Part shown: one piece after another, positions 6,711-30,301 of the stretch
How positions within the stretch are numbered: the stretch's first letter is position 1
Layout: the number at the start of each line of letters is the position of its first letter
NCBI GenBank assembly: GCA_015256915.3
Contig: CP076101.2
Location: 330,001 to 362,000 of the forward strand
Length of the DNA: 32,000 nucleotides
Direction of reading: 5' to 3'
Source: Candidatus Saccharimonas sp.
GTDB lineage: Bacteria; Patescibacteriota; Saccharimonadia; Saccharimonadales; Saccharimonadaceae
Notes under the pieces: generated by a model
Told to the model about the DNA's origin: nothing
Seen by the model: the letters and a program-made list of their open reading frames with translations, nothing else
Database searches by the model: none
Program-made: the position numbers and the translations under genes

Positions 6711-6804
6711 TATGCAACAAAAAGGCTTCCATCAAGACCACAAAAAGGAAAAATATGAGTAACCAAAACTCATTCTTCAACTTTTAATGTTCTTGATAGA
6801 AGCC
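6711..6804 (-). promoter_or_regulatory. long rod-like hairpin plus U5 in the 5' leader of the LPXTG gene (attenuator candidate)
   Basis: The 14-nt arms 6724-6737 and 6791-6804 pair perfectly on the minus-strand RNA, where the single non-Watson-Crick position is a G.U. On the plus strand that position is a C.A mismatch. Apical hairpin at 6755-6773. Followed on the minus strand by UUUUUGUUG. Confidence 0.45.
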
Positions 6805-6842
6805 TTACTATTTAGTTTTAAGCTATCTATCAACTGAGTAGT

Positions 6843-6871
6843 AGTTTATCATATTTTTATATATTTGTCAA
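6843..6871 (-). promoter_or_regulatory. promoter of the LPXTG gene (about 170-nt leader)
   Basis: Minus strand reads TTGACA-17 nt-TGaTAAACT. Confidence 0.5.
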
Positions 6872-6949: not shown

Positions 6950-8083
6950 ATGGAACTAAAAGATTACACTTATAAATTACCTGAAAATAAAATCGCAGCA
7001 CATCCGCCAAAAGTTCGTGGCAGTTCGAGATTACTAGCTTTAGATCGAAAAAGTGGTAAAATTACTGATAGCTTTTATAAAAATATTGTGGATTTCTTTG
7101 AGAGTGGCGATTTGCTCATCTTGAATGATACGAAAGTTATTAAAGCACGGCTTTTCGCCACAAAAGAGAGTGGAGCTGAGCGCGAATTAGTTGTTTTAGA
7201 GCGACACAGTTTTGATAGCGATTGGCACAAACATAAAGTTATGTATCGTGGAAAAATCAAATCTGGTGACAAGCTTTTTGTAAAAGATTCTTCATTAAAA
7301 GATCTCGCCAAAAATAATTTCGAAAAAGCAGAAATTAAAGTTGAAGAAATTCTTGGCGACGGACTCGCGATTGTGAGCTCAAAAATTGATCTTCGTGATC
7401 TTTGCGAAAACTTTGGTACAGTTCCTCTTCCGCCATATATGAGAAGAAACGCTACACCACTTGATATCGAGCGCTATCAAACTGTTTTTGCGGAAGAAAA
7501 AGGATCGGTTGCAGCACCAACCGCCAGCCTAAATATGACTGATGAAATTTTGAACTCATTAAGAGAAAAAGGCGTAGAAATTGCATACTTAACACTTCAT
7601 GTTGGGCTTGGAACTTTTATGCCAATTCGGGTTGAAAAAATTGAAGAACACCGAATGCATCAGGAATACTTTGAAATTCCAGTAAAAACTGTTGCAAAAA
7701 TTCAAAAAACCGCACAAAATGGCGGTAGAGTATTCGCACTCGGCACAACAGTCGCTAGAACACTCGAATATGCCCATAATGCAATTTTCGAAAAAAACCT
7801 AAACGGAAATTCTGGTAATCGTGAAGATTTAAGCAAGATTTCGAAATCTCAAAATGGTGATTTATCCGGTGAAGCAGATATTTTTATTTTTCCAGGATAT
7901 GAGTTTAAAACAATTCAAGGTTTAATCACGAATTTCCACGCGCCAAAATCAACAGTTTTAATGCTTGCAAGTGCTTTTGCCAGCTGGGAAAATCTTAAAA
8001 ATGCCTACAATCACGCAATTCAAAATGGTGAATATAAATTTCTATCATATGGCGATTCAATGATCATCTACCAAAATAAATAG
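6950..8083 (+). CDS. queA: S-adenosylmethionine:tRNA ribosyltransferase-isomerase
   Basis: The N-terminus YKLPENKIAAHPPKVRGSSRLLALDR...LILNDTKVIKARLF and the LPPYM motif are typical of QueA. Confidence 0.9.
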   Translation: MELKDYTYKLPENKIAAHPPKVRGSSRLLALDRKSGKITDSFYKNIVDFFESGDLLILNDTKVIKARLFATKESGAERELVVLERHSFDSDWHKHKVMYRGKIKSGDKLFVKDSSLKDLAKNNFEKAEIKVEEILGDGLAIVSSKIDLRDLCENFGTVPLPPYMRRNATPLDIERYQTVFAEEKGSVAAPTASLNMTDEILNSLREKGVEIAYLTLHVGLGTFMPIRVEKIEEHRMHQEYFEIPVKTVAKIQKTAQNGGRVFALGTTVARTLEYAHNAIFEKNLNGNSGNREDLSKISKSQNGDLSGEADIFIFPGYEFKTIQGLITNFHAPKSTVLMLASAFASWENLKNAYNHAIQNGEYKFLSYGDSMIIYQNK

Positions 8084-13695: not shown

Positions 13696-13950
13696 ATGAA
13701 CAATTTTTTAAAATTTATACAAAAAACTTTAAACAATTCAAATGAACGCATTGTGCTACAAAGATTTTATTTATTTATAGCATTATTCGGATTCATTATC
13801 GCAAGTTTTTTAAATATTTTCGAAAATTCAATTAGTAAAATTATCTTAATGATGGTTATTGCTGCAATTTCCATATTTTTTGTAAATGCAATAATATGGG
13901 TTATCGGTGAAGCTTTAAAGAGTAACTTTCTAAAAAATAATAAGAAATAG
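13696..13950 (+). CDS. hypothetical small membrane protein (84 aa)
   Basis: Two hydrophobic helices. The start is reassigned to the ATG directly downstream of the promoter. Confidence 0.45.
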   Translation: MNNFLKFIQKTLNNSNERIVLQRFYLFIALFGFIIASFLNIFENSISKIILMMVIAAISIFFVNAIIWVIGEALKSNFLKNNKK

Positions 13951-14199: not shown

Positions 14200-14228
14200 A
14201 TTATATATTAAAAACCTTAATTTGTCAA
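14200..14228 (-). promoter_or_regulatory. promoter for the 60-aa ORF
   Basis: Minus strand reads TTGACA-17 nt-TATAAT. Confidence 0.45.
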
Positions 14229-14261
14229 CAGAAGCCTCGATTTGATACCTAAATATTCATA

Positions 14262-14291
14262 TTGACATTGATATAATTTATATGATATAAT
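14262..14291 (+). promoter_or_regulatory. tRNA-Thr promoter
   Basis: TTGACA-18 nt-TGaTATAAT ends 10 nt before the mature tRNA 5' end. Confidence 0.55.
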
Positions 14292-14301
14292 TCATTTATT
14301 C

Positions 14302-14377
14302 GCCGCGATAGCTCAGTTGGTAGAGCGCATCCATGGTAAGGATGAGGTCTCGGGTTCAAGCCCCGATCGTGGCTCCA
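14302..14377 (+). tRNA. tRNA-Thr (anticodon GGU), CCA encoded
   Basis: Hand-folded cloverleaf: 7-bp acceptor stem (one G.U), D arm GCTC/GAGC, anticodon arm CATCC-ATGGTAA-GGATG, T arm TCGGG-TTCAAGC-CCCGA, discriminator T plus CCA. 76 nt. Confidence 0.92.
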
Positions 14378-14417
14378 AGAGATTCTTTATTTCTTGGCAG
14401 TCTACGAAAATCAAATA

Positions 14418-14458
14418 CCGCACTCTGTTAATACATAAAGATGCGGCTTTTTATTTTT
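14418..14458 (+). terminator. terminator after tRNA-Thr
   Basis: CCGCA(C)TCT...AGATGCGG hairpin followed by CTTTTTATTTTT. Confidence 0.5.
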
Positions 14459-14500
14459 CCGATCAAGGAAATTTATAGATGAGTATAAATTACCTCTGGA

Positions 14501-15604
14501 TTAATAAAATCGCGTAAAAAAATTATATGCCTTACCAGTCCCTTTACTAATCATCCAGTCAAAAGCACTTCCGACGGTTTGAGCGGTCTTTTCACTACCA
14601 CCGTTGATAATATTTCCGGCAATATTTCGAATATGTGTAGTTGGTGCGGTCAAAAGTCCAGCTTTCCAAAGAGTTGTGAATTTATCCCATTTTGAGCTTG
14701 GAATTTGATCCCTTACTTCCCGAATAGCTTCACCAATCGCAATTCTTCGCGCTCGAATCTCTTTCAAATCACCTTCCGGCATCGCATAAGCTTCCCGTAG
14801 TTTTCCCAAGAATTCTGCTCGTTGCTCTGGTGTGATGTTAATTTGCTTGTTTGGCTTGTCCTTCATCTTGTCGTTGTAACTTTCAACTTCACGCATTGTA
14901 CTCATCAACACACCTTCAGGGGTTGTTCTTCGCATTAAGTTCAAAGCTTGCACGGTTCGCCCAGCTTCTGTTGCTTTTTTCGCAAGTTCAACATAGAGTT
15001 CACTTGCTTTTAGATCATCACCCATTGCTTGGTAGTGTTTGGCTAGAGCAATTCCTTTAGCCATAGTTTCATCATTTGCTACACGGGTATTTTCTAGTTC
15101 ATTAAACACTCTTTCTGGGCTTTCTTGTACAGATTTAGCTGCCTTGTTCCATAGTTCACTGTTCTTTTTTGGTGTATATTTCAAAGATTCATCACCAGCA
15201 TGCATTAATTTCACAAAGTCTTTTGGTGGCGTGTCTGTATCTAATACAGTTTCAGCGAATTTGCGGGTTTTTTGGTCTGTTTCAGCTAAATCACCTTTCG
15301 AATCTTGAGCAATCTTATAAACTGGATTTTCGTTATATACTGGTGCATTCTGCTTGTAGTTTTGGGCAAATTTACCAGTTTCAGCTTGTGCATAGAATTG
15401 TTTTAAAGTGTCTTGCTGTAATCCCAAAATACCCTTGATTGCTTCCACGATTCTGTCGTAGACTGCAAGCACTCTTGGTGGAATTCCTAATTTTGCACCA
15501 AGTCGTTGACTATCTTCACCAGCTAAAATACCGTTATAGTAATCACTAAAGCCATCTGCTAGATACTCTTCCGCAAAAAGGTTTGCACGCTCTTCGGGGT
15601 TCAT
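14501..15604 (-). CDS. C-terminal 367-aa part of the giant protein (as called in the track)
   Basis: Begins MNPEERANLFAEEYLADG, which looks like the glutamate-containing helix downstream of HExxH in ImmA/IrrE-like zincins. Only a weak SD (AGG) precedes its ATG. Confidence 0.5.
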   Translation of the reverse strand: MNPEERANLFAEEYLADGFSDYYNGILAGEDSQRLGAKLGIPPRVLAVYDRIVEAIKGILGLQQDTLKQFYAQAETGKFAQNYKQNAPVYNENPVYKIAQDSKGDLAETDQKTRKFAETVLDTDTPPKDFVKLMHAGDESLKYTPKKNSELWNKAAKSVQESPERVFNELENTRVANDETMAKGIALAKHYQAMGDDLKASELYVELAKKATEAGRTVQALNLMRRTTPEGVLMSTMREVESYNDKMKDKPNKQINITPEQRAEFLGKLREAYAMPEGDLKEIRARRIAIGEAIREVRDQIPSSKWDKFTTLWKAGLLTAPTTHIRNIAGNIINGGSEKTAQTVGSAFDWMISKGTGKAYNFFTRFY

Positions 15605-15670
15605 ATTAGCGACCTGTTGTGCGTAATTTTCACCATATTTTGCGTTTAGAGCTTCATCACCAACAGTATT

Positions 15671-18499
15671 TCAAATATCTGCAAGTAGTTCTGCTCGGTT
15701 ATCGGCACGTGTTAACAATTTGTGTCCAAGCTCATGGTTGAGTGTGTTTAAATCGCCATCGTTAATGGTAATTTTACCAGTTTTCTCATCAAAGAAACCT
15801 TGTGCACGGCGTTCCAATTCGTTCGCCCATTCATTGAAAGCAATGCTTTGATCTCCGGTAAGTTCTTGGTGACGAGCTTGAAGGTTCTCTTTGGCTACTC
15901 TTACCAAATTCTCCGCTTCAGCCTTTTGTTTAAAGCGTATAATTCCAGCAGCATCATCAACGCCCTTAAAGTATACAACTTCACCACTCTCGCCAAACTT
16001 ATCGCCTGTTTCTACAAAAGGTTTTTTAGTATATTGAGCAAAAGCTTCTGGTCGGCCAAGCGCCATTTGTTCTAAGAGATCATATTCATCTTCATCCATC
16101 TCATCATATAGCTTAGGATTTCGCATAATCTCATCCATTCGCTTATTAGCCATAGCTTGAAGCTTGTCTGATTCTTGCACTGAAACAGTGTTTTTGTCAT
16201 TTCTGCGAGTTTCAAGAATGTTATCACCATATTTATGTGCTGTATCTAAATTATCTGTAAAGAATGCTCCGTTTTCATAGTTGCCAGAATCTGCAAAGTT
16301 AGTTTGATTCTTAATAATCCCCCTACCAGTTTGTGCTTGACCACGATAGATTGGTGTTCCTTCGGTTTCGGTATAGTTAACTTCTGGTAAGTTAGAATTG
16401 TCGTTTGGTAGTCTATATTTTACGCTATCATTGACTTTTTGGTCATTTCGTGCTAAACTATCACTAGAAACATCGGAATAGGATCCAGTGGATGAGTTTT
16501 CTCTGAAGTTGGAAGTTCCGGTGTTTTCTTTTGTTGTAATTCCATATAAAGAATTTATATTTTGAGCATTATTTTTAGCAATATTTAAAGTATTATCAAA
16601 GCTTTTGCCGGCATATCGAGATTTTATATTTCGATAATCAAAACCATCTGGTGCTATACCATGGGCTTTAGAATCATCAGCACTATGTAGATATTGCGAT
16701 TTTTCAATTACATCTTTTATTCTTGGCACTAGTCGTTGCTTAGCGATAAATTCAGTATCTGTACCTGTTCCAGTGGTGTAACTGGATATTTTTTTATTCC
16801 CCTTATTAGTCAAGCTAATTTCTTGCCCATCACCCGTCACATACGGATTATTCGCCCGTAAATCTTGAAGCATATTAAAGCTACGCTCACTCATTCGTTT
16901 GCGAGTATCACCTGTAAATCTACCAATTAGCTCATCTTTAGTAAAGCCTAACTGATCGCTATCTAAACGACCAATGTTTGTTTCTCTCCTTGGGGTATAT
17001 TGCAAGTCTCCACCTCGGTTTTGCCTCTCCGCTTCTGCGAGGGTGATTTTTTCGCGCGTTGGAATTGTTGCATTTCTTTCTGCCTCATATAATGCTTTAG
17101 GATCATAATAGGTGTTTCTTTTAGTGTTGCCTAAAACTGCATCTGGGTGAAGTTTAGAGATACTCACTTCGCCATCTGCCATATTGTTGCTTTTATATGG
17201 ATTCTTAACCGATTCCATTCCACCGAAGGCCATTTTGCCAGCTCCGCCCATAATTCCACCCATTAAAGCACTTTCAGCGACACCTTCGTGAATATCTTGT
17301 TTGTTGTCGAAAAGCTTTTTGGTGAAGTTTTCGGCATATTGTTGTGCACCTTCTTCACCAGCTTCGCCCAATGCACCAGTAATAGCTCGCCCAACCATAT
17401 TTTTTGCAAATTTACCGCCAATTTTACCAGTAAGGTTATCAATTCCAAGCTTTTCAATTGCGGCTTGCACTCCAGCGTTAGCAGTTGAAGCTAAATAGCG
17501 CGAAGTAAAGCTACTTGGTGTGTATGTTTCACCTTTTGCTGCTGTTTCAGCCTTTTTGCGAGCTTCAATGTTGTCTAAGTGGTCCATCATATCTGAATGT
17601 GCCTCAACACCATGTACTACCGCTGGGGCGATACCACCAGTCACGGGGGTCATTGCAGCATCGATCGCCATTCTTGCTCCAGAACTACCTAAGCCATATG
17701 CCATTTTATTATCTTGATCAGTTAAGCCTGTTGCATCATTGAGTGTTTTTCGCACAATGTTCTTTTCACGGTCTGCTCGCACCCGTTTAATTAAATTGTT
17801 TGCAAATTGGTTGTCTTCATCAAATAATTTAATTGTATTAGCCCCAAATTCTGTAAGCGCTCCAGAAGTTTTCGGCACAAATTCTCCCACGGTATTAACT
17901 GCACCTTTCACTGCTGATACTGGCACAACAACTGTTTGTTGAAGATTATCATTATAATTTTTAGTGAAATCACTCACCGCTGTAGCATTTTTATTGATAT
18001 TCTGGCTAGTTTGCGCAATATTTTGCTTCGCTTGCTGATCATCTGGTCCATATTTTCGGAGCATTTCAGCGTTCACCCGGTTTTGAATATTCTGGTTAAT
18101 GGTGTTTTCTCGCATTTGGGCTGTTTTACCACCACTAAAAATATCATTCAAAAAGTTCGCCGCATGGTCTGACCCTTGGTTGTAGCGGTCTGTTTCTTCT
18201 TGCCGATACTTATCCGCCAACTGCTGGCGTTCTTGGTCTCGGTTCATTTGTGGTTGTGGTTGAATGGGTTGCACCGGTTTCACTGGGTTTAAGTCCACCG
18301 AACTCTTCGCAAATTCTTTTGGCTGTTGTGGCTGGGTGGGGTTGCTTAAATTATTCGCAAAATTATCTCCCAGTTTTGGTATGCTATTAAAACTCACCGC
18401 AGATTGTTGTTGCTGTGGTTGCTGTTGTTCATCTTCTCGCTTTTTCTTTTGGCCAAAAAGTCCACCAAAAAAGTCGCCAATACCTTTGAAAATATCCAT
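15671..18499 (-). CDS. N-terminal 942-aa part of the giant protein
   Basis: AAGGAG SD. Gly-rich hydrophobic N-terminus (MDIFKGIGDFFGGLFG), a Q/P-rich tract (codons 22-85), a glycine-zipper-like GGIMGGAGKMAFGG, and HELGH at 15722-15736. No recognisable housekeeping family. Resembles phage or conjugative-element polyvalent proteins (inference). Confidence 0.6.
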   Translation of the reverse strand: MDIFKGIGDFFGGLFGQKKKREDEQQQPQQQQSAVSFNSIPKLGDNFANNLSNPTQPQQPKEFAKSSVDLNPVKPVQPIQPQPQMNRDQERQQLADKYRQEETDRYNQGSDHAANFLNDIFSGGKTAQMRENTINQNIQNRVNAEMLRKYGPDDQQAKQNIAQTSQNINKNATAVSDFTKNYNDNLQQTVVVPVSAVKGAVNTVGEFVPKTSGALTEFGANTIKLFDEDNQFANNLIKRVRADREKNIVRKTLNDATGLTDQDNKMAYGLGSSGARMAIDAAMTPVTGGIAPAVVHGVEAHSDMMDHLDNIEARKKAETAAKGETYTPSSFTSRYLASTANAGVQAAIEKLGIDNLTGKIGGKFAKNMVGRAITGALGEAGEEGAQQYAENFTKKLFDNKQDIHEGVAESALMGGIMGGAGKMAFGGMESVKNPYKSNNMADGEVSISKLHPDAVLGNTKRNTYYDPKALYEAERNATIPTREKITLAEAERQNRGGDLQYTPRRETNIGRLDSDQLGFTKDELIGRFTGDTRKRMSERSFNMLQDLRANNPYVTGDGQEISLTNKGNKKISSYTTGTGTDTEFIAKQRLVPRIKDVIEKSQYLHSADDSKAHGIAPDGFDYRNIKSRYAGKSFDNTLNIAKNNAQNINSLYGITTKENTGTSNFRENSSTGSYSDVSSDSLARNDQKVNDSVKYRLPNDNSNLPEVNYTETEGTPIYRGQAQTGRGIIKNQTNFADSGNYENGAFFTDNLDTAHKYGDNILETRRNDKNTVSVQESDKLQAMANKRMDEIMRNPKLYDEMDEDEYDLLEQMALGRPEAFAQYTKKPFVETGDKFGESGEVVYFKGVDDAAGIIRFKQKAEAENLVRVAKENLQARHQELTGDQSIAFNEWANELERRAQGFFDEKTGKITINDGDLNTLNHELGHKLLTRADNRAELLADI

Positions 18500-18595
18500 C
18501 TCTTCTCCTTATCTTGTCGCTGCAAAATAAAAAACTGAGCGACGCAAATGTTAATATTTTGCTAATCGCTCAGCGCTCTGAGTGGATTATTTTAT
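18500..18595 (-). promoter_or_regulatory. about 96-nt 5' leader of the giant gene with three mutually exclusive hairpins, one terminator-like
   Basis: Plus-strand coordinates: hairpin C 18566-18585; hairpin B 18536-18542 / 18566-18572, followed on the RNA by GUUUUUUAUUUU; hairpin A 18516-18521 / 18538-18543. Confidence 0.4.
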
Positions 18596-18601
18596 AATTT
18601 T

Positions 18602-18631
18602 ATTATAACACAAAACCCATGTCTCTAACAA
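18602..18631 (-). promoter_or_regulatory. promoter of the giant gene
   Basis: Minus strand reads TTGTTA-18 nt-TGtTATAAT. Confidence 0.45.
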
Positions 18632-18711
18632 TTTTTATTCTACTTATGTTTTGTCAATACCTTTTTTGGGCTTTTTTCGCCAATTTTATATCTGTAATTT
18701 GACAAAATGTA

Positions 18712-18740
18712 TTGATTATTTTTTAATAGTGTGGTATAAT
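18712..18740 (+). promoter_or_regulatory. orphan near-consensus promoter pointing into the 3' end of the DUF3644-like gene
   Basis: TTGATT-17 nt-TGgTATAAT. No plus-strand protein gene lies downstream. Confidence 0.5.
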
Positions 18741-18746
18741 AGAAAC

Positions 18747-18840
18747 ATAAAGATAGCCTGTAAAGGAAAAAAGCTGAGTTCCCGAATGGGAGTAAGACAA
18801 CGGTCGAGAATTCTCATGCTCCTGGGGCTATTTTTCTTTT
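18747..18840 (+). ncRNA. candidate ~95-nt structured small RNA, or just a bidirectional terminator module
   Basis: P1 18753-18758 / 18826-18831, P2 18772-18778 / 18813-18820 (one bulge), P3 18780-18783 / 18788-18791, then UUUUUCUUUU. It overlaps the stop codon of the convergent gene. Confidence 0.35.
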
Positions 18841-19820
18841 AGCTCTTCAATTGATCGCTTAAGATTTTCTATAATATTTTCAGGATCTTTTTTTATAGCT
18901 TCTATGATAATATTTACGAATTTATCCGAGTAAGCAAATCTATTCAGCCATTTAAAGCAATATTCGGGATTATCTTTAGCATTATAAAATTTCACAAATA
19001 ACTGAAAATCATTAGTAGTAAAAATAGAGTTTATTCTCTCTTCTCCTTTTATTTTAGTTATTTTTATATTTTCGTTCTTTAACGCTTTATTCACCAAATT
19101 AACCACATTATTCGTAAAGCGTGGGTGAGTTTTCCGCGGATCAAGGATCTTATTAACCTGAACTACCGAATCGTCAGCATCTAGGCTAACAGATACAGAC
19201 CAGTCAGCTTCGTCTTCATTCTTAGTGATAAATATTTTTGACTCGATCGGTATAGCAAATTTATCACCACTACTTTGAATTTCCTGTTCTATCTGATGTT
19301 TTTCCGATAATATCTTTTCGGCCATCTCTGGTGAATATTTGGCTCGGATCTCTTCATCTGTTGCTACATTTACTTGAGCAGATAACATAATAAACCCATG
19401 CGGTAAAATATTCAAAATATCTATCCCGTGATATTCTTTCATTTTATCTATATAATCGATAACATTTCGCTGAAAAATTTGAACATACATAGACTCGTGG
19501 TCTGTTGTAATAAAATGACTGCTCTTATTGCGCAGATTATTTATTGTATTTATATTTTTACGAAGAGGAGAATTCTTATTTGTTATAACTCGCTTAAGAG
19601 ACTCTGGTAAAGAAAGCGTATTATTACTATTTTTGTAGTAGATAGGTTTTTCATCTTTTAATAATTTAGCTTTCAGCATAAGTTCCCAAGCATTGCATAC
19701 GAAAAGAGCAAACCCCTCAACTCTATATTTAATAGTTGGTTTATTATAGATTTCTAAAGCCATAGTAAAAGCTTCAATACTTTTTTCTATCATTTTTTCA
19801 GAAAGTTGTTTATTATTCAT
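18828..19820 (-). CDS. DUF3644-like protein with an Rx4H (HEPN-like) motif; candidate defence or abortive-infection gene
   Basis: The N-terminal IEAFTMALEIYNKPTIKYRVEGFALFVCNAWELMLKAKL matches my memory of the DUF3644 signature (YNKP...YR.E.F......AWE.L.KA). LRNKSSH fits Rx4-6H. Start moved to the ATG at 19820; the track start at 19931 overlaps the upstream gene. Confidence 0.6.
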   Translation of the reverse strand: MNNKQLSEKMIEKSIEAFTMALEIYNKPTIKYRVEGFALFVCNAWELMLKAKLLKDEKPIYYKNSNNTLSLPESLKRVITNKNSPLRKNINTINNLRNKSSHFITTDHESMYVQIFQRNVIDYIDKMKEYHGIDILNILPHGFIMLSAQVNVATDEEIRAKYSPEMAEKILSEKHQIEQEIQSSGDKFAIPIESKIFITKNEDEADWSVSVSLDADDSVVQVNKILDPRKTHPRFTNNVVNLVNKALKNENIKITKIKGEERINSIFTTNDFQLFVKFYNAKDNPEYCFKWLNRFAYSDKFVNIIIEAIKKDPENIIENLKRSIEELKEK

Positions 19821-19827
19821 ACCTACT

Positions 19828-19836
19828 ATTATACCA
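19828..19836 (-). promoter_or_regulatory. extended -10 box 7 nt upstream of the DUF3644-like ATG (leaderless-type)
   Basis: Minus strand reads TGgTATAAT, then AGTAGGT, then ATG. Confidence 0.45.
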
Positions 19837-19839
19837 TAA

Positions 19840-19862
19840 CCAAAAGAAAGCCCTTTCGAGCT
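19840..19862 (-). terminator. short terminator after the 383-aa gene
   Basis: Minus strand AGCUC-GAAA-GGGCU (one G.U pair) followed by UUCUUUUGG. Confidence 0.4.
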
Positions 19863-19869
19863 CCCTTTT

Positions 19870-21021
19870 CTACACCTGCAAATCCTTTTTCTTCTTATTT
19901 GGATCAAGCAACGCAGCAAGTCGTGGGTCAAGCTGGTCTTGGAGTCCCGCCTGATCCGGATTTCCGCTGTCCACTTTCACACCTTGCACATTTTCGCTAT
20001 AATCGCTAAGCTTTGGTGCTTTAAATTCCACTTTTTCAAGGGCTTTTGGTGTTTCCTTGCTCAAATCCAAAATCTTGTTCTGGCTGTTGCTAATCTGGTT
20101 AGATAGATCCCGTGTTTGGTCTATCGCACTCTGCAACCCTTGGCCATTGGCAGTCTTCTGTTTCTGCCTTGCATCCATAATGCGGCTATTCAAGTCAATT
20201 CGGCTACTTTCAATTTGTGAGTCAACATTATTTAACGCATCTTGGCGGTTAGTTTCCCAATCTTTCTTGTTCTTATTGTACGCATTAGTTGCGCTAGCAA
20301 ACTCCAAGTCTTGGTTTCGGCGATCTCGAGCGAAAGCATCTTGTGCGCTTCCAGCGTTTCGGCTCGCCTCCAAACCAACTGCCCAAGGAGCGACAATTTG
20401 TGCTGCGCTTGAATCTCCCGCTCCACCTGCTGCAAACATTTGGCGCAAAGCGTTGGTTTGATTGTTTGCATCTTCCATGATTTGTGAACGCACTGCACGG
20501 TTTTGGGCTTCTGAGTCTCGTTTGTTCATCTCATATGCGCCCTTGCTTTGGGTATAGCTGTTTTCAAGGTCATTTAGCTGGTGGGCGTAGTTATTTTCAA
20601 CATTACCACGCCAAATATCTCGTTGGCGATCCAATCTGCCCAAACCTTCAGTTGCCACTCGTTCTTGCTCACGGTATTTCGCAATTTCATCTGCTCTTGC
20701 TTTTGCTTGAGGGTCGTAGGTTCCGCCTTGGCGTGGGTCTGAGTAGACTGGATCTGGTTTCTCCCTCTTGTTTTGATTTACATTATTCTTTTTCCAGTCA
20801 TTATATAATCCCCTTACAACATTGCTAGTTCCAGCGTATTCAAACCCTAGGTCGTTAGCATCATTAAAACCAGTTCCGTCAGGATGATTAGCCCTAATTA
20901 GAGCATTTCTATCTACGCCACCGTCATTTCCGGTATATTTCAAGAAGTTATTAAAACCGTTCGCAGCCAAAAAACCACGAAAGTCATCCTTGCCGTTATA
21001 ATTATTGTAGTCTAAAGCCAT
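19870..21021 (-). CDS. hypothetical Q/N/D/R-rich, predicted coiled-coil protein (383 aa)
   Basis: Long open frame with high local G+C and a GAGGA SD. No signal peptide or TM segment. No family recognised. Confidence 0.6.
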   Translation of the reverse strand: MALDYNNYNGKDDFRGFLAANGFNNFLKYTGNDGGVDRNALIRANHPDGTGFNDANDLGFEYAGTSNVVRGLYNDWKKNNVNQNKREKPDPVYSDPRQGGTYDPQAKARADEIAKYREQERVATEGLGRLDRQRDIWRGNVENNYAHQLNDLENSYTQSKGAYEMNKRDSEAQNRAVRSQIMEDANNQTNALRQMFAAGGAGDSSAAQIVAPWAVGLEASRNAGSAQDAFARDRRNQDLEFASATNAYNKNKKDWETNRQDALNNVDSQIESSRIDLNSRIMDARQKQKTANGQGLQSAIDQTRDLSNQISNSQNKILDLSKETPKALEKVEFKAPKLSDYSENVQGVKVDSGNPDQAGLQDQLDPRLAALLDPNKKKKDLQV

Positions 21022-21063
21022 ATCTTCCTCTATATGTTATTTGGGAGATAATGTTTGGCTTAG

Positions 21064-21642
21064 TTATTTTTTTTGACAAAAATGTTGAACAGCTATAGTA
21101 TGATAATGCTTCTCTCTTCCACCGCGCGTTACATACATTCCAGCGTGCGTAAATTTAGGGTTTAAAATATTCTCTTTATGTCCTTGACTACCCATCCAGC
21201 CATCTACGAGTTGTTTTTCTACAGGGTAGTTCCAAGAGATATTTTCCCCAAGCCAGCTACACCTTAAATTAGGGTTTAAATCTACGATATAATCCATCCC
21301 ATCATATCCGGTTTGCGGGTCTACATGGTCGGTGTTCTGAATATCCTGCATACGCTTAGCTTTTGTTTCGGCAGAAATATCAAGTTCATGAAGCCTTACT
21401 AAAGGTTTAACTCCAGCTTTAATTCTTTCTTCATTGACAAGCCTGAAGAGTTCGTCAGAGCTCAATTCTTTAAAAGTGTAATCTACTTTGGGCTCTTCTT
21501 TTTTCGCACATGTACCAGATAAGCAGTTGTTTATAAAATACATCGGAACGGCTATCAATACCACAGGTATCATAGCTATAGCTAAAATCATAAAAAATAC
21601 TTTAAGCATTCTTTTTATAGCTATCTTTTGCACATCTTTCAT
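21064..21642 (-). CDS. membrane-anchored CAP/SCP/PR-1 (YkwD-like) domain protein
   Basis: N-terminal TM helix. VNEERIKAGVKPL...GENI...VDGWMGSQGHKENILNPKFTHAGM matches the CAP-domain pattern (N..R...G..PL ... W..S.GH..N.L). Confidence 0.7.
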   Translation of the reverse strand: MKDVQKIAIKRMLKVFFMILAIAMIPVVLIAVPMYFINNCLSGTCAKKEEPKVDYTFKELSSDELFRLVNEERIKAGVKPLVRLHELDISAETKAKRMQDIQNTDHVDPQTGYDGMDYIVDLNPNLRCSWLGENISWNYPVEKQLVDGWMGSQGHKENILNPKFTHAGMYVTRGGREKHYHTIAVQHFCQKK

Positions 21643-21666
21643 ATCTTGATATTACTCCATTTAATT

Positions 21667-21700
21667 CAAAAAACAACCACCCATAAAATGAACGGTTGTT
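21667..21700 (-). terminator. terminator after rpsI (bidirectional shape)
   Basis: AACAACC...GGTTGTT 7-bp stem with T tracts on both sides. Confidence 0.45.
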
Positions 21701-21710
21701 TTTTTGTATA

Positions 21711-29116: not shown

Positions 29117-30301
29117 TTATTTGATGATGTTTGTAACAACACCAGCACCAACAGTTCGTCCACCTTCACGGATAGCAAAGTTCAAACCTTGCTCCATGGC
29201 GATAGGTGCTTGCAATTTAACTTTGAAAGTTACATTGTCACCAGGCATAACCATTTCTTTATCAGCTGGAAGTTCAACTTCACCAGTAACGTCAGTTGTT
29301 CGGAAGTAGAATTGTGGTTTGTAACCCTTTGAGAATGGAGTGTGTCGTCCACCTTCATCTTTTTTCAAGATATAAACTTCAGCTTCAAATTCTGTGTGTG
29401 GAGTAATTGTGCCAGGAGCAGCAATAACTTGTCCACGTTCGATTTGATCTCGATCAATACCTCGAAGAAGAAGACCAGCGTTGTCACCTGCTTGACCTTG
29501 ATCAAGAGATTTTTTGAAAGCTTCAATACCTGTAACAACAGTTTTTTGTGAATCTTTCAAACCAACAATTTCAACTTCATCATTAAGTTTAACAACACCT
29601 TGTTCGATTCGTCCTGTAGCAACTGTACCACGACCTTTGATTGAGAAAACATCTTCGATAGGCATCAAGAATGGTTTATCCATATCGCGAACTGGTTCTT
29701 CAATGTATGTATCCATAGCATCAACCAATTCCATAATAGCGTCTTCGTATTTTTCATCACCTTCAAGAGCTTTAAGAGCTGAACCTTTGATGATTGGAGC
29801 ATTGTCGCCATCAAATCCGTTTGCTGAAAGAAGTTCACGAACATCCATTTCGATCAACTCAACAAGTTCTTCATCGGCCATATCCATTTTGTTCAAGAAA
29901 ACAACAATCTTAGGCACACCAACTTGTTTTGCCAAAAGAACGTGTTCACGAGTTTGTGGCATAGGACCATCTGTAGCTGCAATCACAAGAACAGCACCAT
30001 CAACCTGAGCAGCACCAGTGATCATGTTTTTAACATAGTCTGCGTGTCCAGGCATGTCAACGTGAGCATAGTGTCGGTTCTTTGATTCGTATTCTTGGTG
30101 AGAAGAAGCAATCGTAATACCACGAGCTTTTTCTTCTGGTGCGTTATCGATTTGGTCGTACGCAATTGGTTTGTTAACTTCTGATGGAAGTCGTTTTGCA
30201 AGAACTGCTGTGATAGCCGCAGTAAGAGTTGTTTTACCGTGGTCAACGTGTCCCATAGTACCAACGTTTACGTGTGGCTTTGAGCGGTCAAATTCTGCCA
30301 T
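29117..30301 (-). CDS. tuf: elongation factor Tu
   Basis: [26 protein letters not shown]... is a full-length EF-Tu. The start is set at the ATG at 30301 with an AAGGAG upstream; the track start at 30370 is an upstream extension. Confidence 0.95.

Follow-up and report, generated by a model that had tools for sequence, protein, structure and literature searches.

A premature TGA codon divides a phage-type polyvalent protein gene within its predicted metallopeptidase module in the oral Saccharibacteria genome JB002

Structure of the split gene

We analysed a stretch of 32,000 nucleotides (the window, to which all coordinates refer unless stated otherwise) from JB002 (GenBank CP076101), a complete oral Saccharibacteria genome of clade G6 (PMC8386444), in which a very large reading frame on the minus strand is divided by a single in-frame TGA. 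The frame is that of a phage-type polyvalent protein gene (here the giant gene) lying in a prophage remnant, and the TGA falls inside a zincin-like module with an HExxH motif. A preliminary description of this DNA, made from its letters and open reading frames (ORFs), had reported that an ORF of 942 residues ends at the TGA and that the same frame continues into a second ORF of 367 residues; all of its coordinates proved correct. The upstream ORF (18499..15671, 942 codons) ends ...NHELGHKLLTRADNRAELLADI-TGA (NRAELLADI-TGA, the TGA being 15673-15671), and past the stop the frame reads NTVGDEALNAKYGENYAQQVAN-M... and stays open for 389 further codons up to a TAA at 14503-14501, with exactly one in-frame stop before this final TAA in 1,333 codons. 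The elements of the gene are as follows:

15674..18499, minus strand: 5' fragment of 942 codons, annotated as a hypothetical protein (HXL38_001835, QWB90718.2)
15671..15673, minus strand: premature TGA at codon 943, the derived base being T at 15673 (A on the plus strand) and the ancestral codon CGA (Arg)
14501..15670, minus strand: 3' fragment of 389 codons plus TAA, in the same frame as the 5' fragment
16661..16873, minus strand: residues 543-613, weakly matching LPD3 (large polyvalent protein-associated domain 3) with 25 bits, below the cut-off of 27
15950..16402, minus strand: variable middle cassette, residues about 700-850, with no profile match in the window allele
15416..15853, minus strand: zincin-like metallopeptidase module, residues 883-1028 of the 1,332-residue product
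14501..14531, minus strand: truncation junction, where the last nine codons (AYNFFTRFY) and the stop are unrelated sequence

The conserved N-terminal region, which has Gly-rich hydrophobic stretches, belongs to the 5' fragment, as do the weak LPD3, the middle cassette and the first half of the module with HELGH; the helix of the module that bears the Glu falls in the 3' fragment, together with a helical region that is conserved. In GenBank only 14501-15604 is recorded as a separate protein of 367 residues (HXL38_001830, QWB90717.1), which starts at an internal ATG (15604-15602), 66 nt after the TGA, and ends at the stop at 14503-14501. Both products match their GenBank entries, QWB90718.2 and QWB90717.1, exactly (637,739-bp contig, "Candidatus Saccharimonas sp."). 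The scanned minus strand of the 66-nt gap yielded neither terminator-like nor promoter-like sites, and only a weak AGG lies ahead of the internal ATG, just as the preliminary description had it.

The read-through product aligns end to end with intact homologues, and the ratio of nonsynonymous to synonymous substitution rates (dN/dS), computed for the window allele against prophage or chromosomal relatives, lies at 0.03-0.08 upstream of the stop as well as in the 389 codons past it (codons 858-1322 likewise give 0.03-0.08). Since the product matches whole homologues and dN/dS is low also beyond the stop, the continuity of the frame is not due to chance, and because the ratio is equally low before and after the stop, the lesion is young. 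Judged from these alignments, strong purifying selection acts on the giant-protein family, and the change to a stop codon appears to be very recent.

Comparison of alleles at codon 943

A search with the conceptual read-through product against about 5.8 billion protein clusters gave 681 matches, and we compared codon 943 in the best 120. In 119 of these the site is Arg and the homologue is one protein; the sole exception is the window's own 942-residue product. The local sequence in the homologues is AELLADI-R-NTVGDE, with a variant DLIDEV-R-RTFGDE in protein P0090, and three homologues are about 100% identical across 1,332 residues. Homologues consisting of two genes with the same boundary were looked for and not found among the best 120.

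At the DNA level, six assemblies from six different samples (ENA and Logan) contain the same gene in the same chromosomal context, i.e., an intact orthologue at the same locus with syntenic flanks (8-24 kb, 99.8-99.99% identical to the window). The 3,999-nt gene of each differs from that of the window at one place only, gene position 2827 (window 15673), where a point change creates the stop (CGA versus TGA). One of them (L004) agrees with the window at every other base of 14,180 nt, and 15673 is the only position at which the window departs from all assemblies compared base by base. Codon 943 is CGA in 10 of 10 relatives with DNA, including prophage copies that are only about 91% identical, and CGA is the commonest Arg codon in the window (158 uses). 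Within a collection of 15 billion proteins the 942- and 367-residue products occur on one contig, the window's own record, and the intact product of 1,332 residues occurs on at least six contigs. Since all ten relatives have CGA where the window has TGA, the event was a C-to-T transition at an Arg codon. A recent nonsense mutation had been among the explanations offered in the preliminary description, and it is the one that these otherwise identical genes strongly favour: we consider it highly likely that the TGA is a recent private nonsense mutation, its allele being seen in JB002 only.

The six contigs concerned (L001-L006) come from six metagenomes and at least three projects, and the giant gene is identical in all of them. 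To judge from these contigs, the JB002-type G6 lineage is remarkably clonal across human samples.

Genetic code and read-through

UGA is reassigned in some lineages of the candidate phyla radiation (CPR) and in some phages. Together with the open frame after the stop, this could speak for a UGA that is decoded, be it by recoding (code 4 or 25), programmed read-through or selenocysteine insertion, or for a gene from a UGA-recoding donor, and both read-through and a relic of such a donor had been proposed for this locus. We attach next to no probability to any of these, because the site is universally CGA (Arg) and not TGG, GGN or TGA, i.e., the ancestral codon specified neither Trp nor Gly and a TGA is not conserved at this position. 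In the window, TGA ends rpsM (128 residues, with a full-length S13 domain) and the sortase gene at their normal lengths, which are the same in sister assemblies, and the stop codons of the 30 window ORFs are 22 TAA, 5 TAG and 3 TGA. No further in-frame TGA occurs in these 30 ORFs (about 10,000 codons), in line with the earlier remark that a single TGA argues against wholesale recoding, and the full-length phage copies of the giant gene are open under code 11 without in-frame stops. As TGA is a normal terminator in the window, recoding and read-through were rejected.

The HExxH module split by the stop

The presumed catalytic motifs lie where the preliminary description had placed them, on either side of the stop: HELGH at 15736-15722 (H922, E923 and H926) and EERANLFAEEY, a segment of the EExAxxFAEE type, at 15595-15563, in which A976-E977-E978 occupy 15574-15566. 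A sensitive search with residues 846-1050 of the intact product against 1.84 billion cluster representatives found 33 proteins, and all 24 aligned diverged representatives of the module span the stop site; together with the Arg found in 119 of the 120 homologues, this bears out the claim that the stop lies inside one domain. Across 18 aligned diverged members, whose identity goes as low as 23%, N-H-E-x-x-H is invariant upstream of the stop, and A-E-E, about 50 residues past HExxH and thus downstream of the stop, varies hardly or not at all. Two Tyr and several Gly do not vary either, and in the column equivalent to the stop the closer members have R or K, the distant ones I, A or V.

AlphaFold2, run on the trimmed alignment, gave a confident model of one module (mean predicted local distance difference test score, pLDDT, 87.9; predicted template modelling score, pTM, 0.82) that reads across the stop: three short strands (model residues 4-6, 19-22 and 27-30), a helix with HExxH (35-48), a two-helix insert containing R943, a long helix with A-E-E (86-110) and two further helices. 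An earlier model of 205 residues had produced one weak zincin-related match only. With the trimmed model, the top eight matches of a Foldseek search against the PDB all have a zincin fold (Mycobacterium tuberculosis PrpR, Deinococcus PprI/IrrE and anthrax lethal factor), at non-significant scores (E 0.2-1, template modelling score, TM, 0.31-0.38). The best match in BFVD reaches E 6.7e-3 and TM 0.54, in a list in which large polyvalent or structural proteins of phages prevail and some entries resemble IrrE, SprT or lethal factor. No match to the window module came from Pfam, its metallopeptidase models included, even at E up to 10, Peptidase_Mx and DUF6782 each weakly match 2 of the 18 members (best E 0.007 and 0.013, respectively), and PHROGs and PDB sequence or profile searches with the HExxH module gave nothing significant.

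On motifs and predicted fold, the module looks like the gluzincin-type metallopeptidase (MPTase) of phage polyvalent proteins, for which a core has been described (Iyer, Burroughs, Anand, de Souza, Aravind 2017, J Bacteriol; PMC5512222) that consists of a sheet of three strands, a helix with HExxH, an insert that varies and a helix with Glu. The model has the same predicted order, i.e., a three-stranded sheet before the HExxH helix, an insert and a second helix with a conserved Glu. As in that family, the module sits inside a very large phage protein with LPD3, whose homologues carry ART-PolyVal, PBECR or LPD38 domains, the gene belongs to the structural-gene block of a prophage, and the best BFVD folds are large phage polyvalent or structural proteins. 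It differs in that the Pfam metallopeptidase models fail to match the window sequence, in that it forms a small clade (the 33 representatives among 1.84 billion), and in that the JB002 copy is a chromosomal, truncated and non-mobile relic interrupted by a stop.

The preliminary description had proposed a zincin of the ImmA/IrrE type (PprI; MEROPS M78/COG2856). The zincin hallmarks stand, with an HExxH helix followed by a Glu helix with a hydrophobic A/F/L pattern, and IrrE (3dte; E 0.66, TM 0.36), PprI (8sln; E 0.28, TM 0.33) and PrpR, which we take to carry a COG2856-like domain, are within the top eight PDB folds, but not significantly so (E 0.2-0.8, TM 0.31-0.37). Membership in the family is not supported, and two of its defining features are lacking: Pfam Peptidase_M78 matches neither the module (E up to 10) nor any of the 18 members (E up to 5), and there is no adjacent or fused repressor partner of the XRE type with a helix-turn-helix domain, the neighbours being the CAP-domain, 383-residue and nuclease-like proteins. 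Moreover, the motif is AEE-LAD-F and not E-x-x-A-N-x-F-A, and the module is part of a giant protein of the virion module and not of an antirepressor switch.

The module would bind zinc and cleave protein, with the conserved Glu presumably acting as third zinc ligand. Since the stop parts the two halves of the predicted catalytic site, the module cannot be functional in the JB002 allele.

The giant protein and its phage relatives

LPD3, which stays just below the cut-off in the window protein, exceeds it in homologues (47.9 bits in P0031; 66 and 73 bits in P0142 and P0145), and homologues also carry ART-PolyVal, PBECR5, PBECR3 and LPD38. This combination of LPD3 with ART-PolyVal, PBECR and LPD38 is a hallmark of phage polyvalent proteins. 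The middle cassette is exchanged between relatives: P0013 is 100% identical to the window protein at residues 1-250 and about 900-1332 and only 14-30% identical across the cassette, which is ART-PolyVal in P0013 (E 3e-23) and a PBECR5 nuclease in the prophage form P0105. The motifs IYRG and AFFTD in the window cassette hint at a divergent ADP-ribosyltransferase.

Full-length relatives of 2,193-2,216 residues occur in integrated Saccharibacteria phages (prophage copies having 2,198 residues), and the giant gene is also found on two IMG/VR viral contigs. In the prophages, the small and large terminase, portal and major head protein genes are followed by those for a DUF3761 protein, a CAP-domain protein and a 379-residue protein, a variable slot and the giant gene, and then by five more genes, including one for a collagen-like tail fibre, and by amidase and integrase. 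Its position and its Gly-rich hydrophobic stretches would suit a tape-measure role for the giant protein, whereas LPD3, ART and PBECR point to a polyvalent, injected protein; the latter fits better, although the two are not mutually exclusive.

Similarity to the prophage protein of about 2,200 residues stops at residue 1323 (nucleotide end 14532), which is also where the alignment with the P0105 protein ends (1323/1473), so the "intact" allele of 1,332 residues is itself a truncated relic. Among the best 120 homologue clusters, about 78 end at ...REAYAMPEGN, 79 residues before the truncation point of the window, three further end points define smaller classes, and only 12 reach full length (about 2,200 residues). 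Further lesions are found in other copies: the gene of contig L015 (10001-12746) has a frameshift after about codon 655 and is also truncated just before HExxH, those of L010 and L011 have a stop inside the aligned stretch, and that of L012 has lost about 380 codons by an internal deletion. According to these sequences, the chromosomal copies in other species-level genomes have decayed independently. In the viral contig L017 (IMG/VR UViG_3300008331_000015), an in-frame deletion between two repeats of the tripeptide GDE (about 6800-6870) has taken out the strands of the module together with its HExxH helix; the AEE helix is still present, and the giant gene is open.

Nonsense mutation, consensus error or functional split

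In the scenario we propose, a C-to-T transition would have turned codon 943 from CGA (Arg) into TGA, in a phage-type polyvalent protein gene that was already truncated at its C-terminus and located in a prophage remnant of about 7 kb. The stop falls in the insert between the two catalytic helices of the putative zincin-like module, so that translation would end past the HExxH helix. The protein would thereby lose the helix whose invariant Glu-Glu presumably supplies the third zinc ligand, as well as its conserved C-terminal region of about 355 residues, possibly except for what a weak restart at the internal ATG might supply. As the module would be unable to assemble with or without such a restart, the gene appears to be undergoing pseudogenisation. 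The case resembles prophage-remnant pseudogenes that arose by CGA-to-TGA changes in that one transition hit the commonest Arg codon, sister strains have the intact allele at the orthologous locus, neighbouring phage genes are lost and other lineages show independent lesions; it is unlike the usual ones only in its host, an episymbiotic member of the Saccharibacteria whose ultra-small genome has hardly any dispensable DNA.

The TGA might instead be an assembly or polishing error, JB002 really having CGA and an intact gene of 1,332 codons. The JB002 sequence was assembled from a saliva metagenome with Unicycler from Illumina and nanopore reads and then polished with Pilon, which, as the authors of the genome report, introduced errors in the rRNA operons via cross-mapped reads (PMC8386444, Text S1). 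The TGA allele is known from one record only, and one single base separates the window from the six assemblies. An error is nevertheless unlikely, because Unicycler starts from Illumina contigs, in which random substitution errors are rare, and because cross-mapped reads from a relative or phage would have brought in the CGA found in all ten relatives and could not write a T. The site lies in a TTCGAA palindrome, yet the other 59 TTCGAA sites of the window are unchanged relative to the sister assemblies, and a basecalling error linked to a methylation motif, or a hotspot at TTCGAA, is therefore unlikely.

The palindrome itself is strongly over-represented, with 59 occurrences in the whole window against 17.5 expected from shuffled sequences (standard deviation 4.4). 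The core chromosome (24.7 kb) has 57 of them, and the island that forms the prophage remnant (7.3 kb) only 2. The nonsense mutation (TTCGAA to TTTGAA) removes what would be a third site in the island, and one may speculate that the mutated C was a methylated C in TTCGAA that underwent deamination.

A further explanation is a functional split, in which the 942-residue product and a 367-residue product started at the ATG at 15604 would both be made and the truncation would be adaptive, e.g., by switching off a costly peptidase and keeping the N-terminal part. The GenBank annotation of two proteins is compatible with it, the loss of HExxH by in-frame deletion in the otherwise open gene of L017 would be a parallel, and in several chromosomal copies the N-terminal 675-690 codons or so are open on their own. 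However, the boundary was not found in any homologue compared, no promoter-like site was found and only the weak AGG precedes the internal ATG, the allele is private to one genome, and the two pieces would be halves of one predicted fold, all of which makes such a split very improbable.

We therefore prefer the recent private nonsense mutation, and infer that the mutation is genuine, not an artefact of the assembly, and plays no programmed role. Several points weigh against this conclusion. The base call at 15673 comes from the assembly consensus alone, and that consensus contains the polishing errors mentioned above. The low dN/dS speaks for selection on the family, and is no proof that the truncated chromosomal copy worked before the mutation. 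The assignment as a metallopeptidase, finally, derives from motifs, a predicted structure and fold matches that are not significant, and is accordingly putative.

The prophage remnant and its surroundings

The giant gene is part of an island between core genes, with secY, infA, rpsM, rpsK, rpsD, rpoA, rplQ, rplM and rpsI on one side and tRNA-Thr, rpmG, rpsJ and nrdD on the other. The features of the island and its border are:

14378-21710: prophage-remnant island of about 7 kb between rpsI and tRNA-Thr(GGT)
18828..21642, minus strand: remainder of the prophage remnant beyond the giant gene
21064-21642, minus strand: gene of a CAP-domain protein, in the prophage remnant
19870-21021, minus strand: gene of a 383-residue protein with no assigned function, in the prophage remnant
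18828-19931, minus strand: gene of a nuclease-like protein with DUF3644 and EC042_2821, in the variable slot of the prophage remnant
14302..14377, plus strand: tRNA-Thr (GGT), bounding the island on one side
14262-14291, plus strand: promoter with an extended -10 TG, 11 nt upstream of tRNA-Thr
14228-14200, minus strand: promoter facing an ORF of 60 residues and rpmG

From the CAP gene through the gene of the 383-residue protein and a single gene in the variable slot to the truncated giant gene, the island follows the gene order of intact Saccharibacteria prophages (L007 and L009); it has no head, tail, lysis or integrase genes. It is found at the same chromosomal site in several other G6 species. 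The variable slot just upstream of the giant gene holds a DUF3800 protein gene in prophage L007 and is empty in L009. The DUF3644 and EC042_2821 protein that occupies it in the window has matches to PDC-S19, a candidate defence family of PADLOC (E 1e-112), and to phrog_9605; elsewhere, gene callers have chosen a later ATG for it (330 residues).

In contig L011, tRNA-Thr(GGT) is present in two inverted copies that flank the island (7741-7816 on the minus and 13836-13911 on the plus strand of that contig), which suggests a duplication of the att site and an inversion at an integration hotspot. The two promoters at 14200-14291 are divergent and of the sigma-70 consensus type, each a perfect match (12/12).

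A megablast search of a phage collection gave only short matches of 71-75% identity, at about 29200-30300 of the window (query 14833-15895), to dubious records that have no annotation and bear the names of Enterococcus, Staphylococcus, Listeria and Acinetobacter phages. The matched stretch is bacterial core DNA near secY (the ribosomal/SecY end) and not the giant gene, and these records probably contain bacterial contamination.

Implications

The event itself is ordinary, namely a nonsense mutation from CGA to TGA that is private to JB002 or, with lower probability, an error in the consensus. The stop is no sign of an alternative genetic code in Saccharibacteria, and in the annotation of CP076101, HXL38_001835 and HXL38_001830 should be one disrupted gene (a pseudogene) and not two hypothetical proteins. 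A modest novelty lies in the family of TM7 phage polyvalent proteins and its metallopeptidase clade, for which there is no covering profile.

Taking the observations jointly, the truncated gene might be a domesticated prophage relic, kept under purifying selection at a fixed site in oral clade G6 Saccharibacteria, with its middle toxin cassette exchanged with circulating TM7 phages and a candidate defence gene adjoining it; we put this forward tentatively, as a possibility we do not ourselves favour. If it were true, the JB002 nonsense allele would represent the loss or functional splitting of the relic in progress, and the HExxH module would be a phage-specific metallopeptidase clade without a profile as yet.

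The locus ties a conserved chromosomal island of oral clade G6 Saccharibacteria to a family of integrating phages that encode a giant polyvalent protein with swappable ADP-ribosyltransferase or nuclease cassettes. It is thus a useful marker for assigning phages to hosts in a group that has almost no characterised phages.

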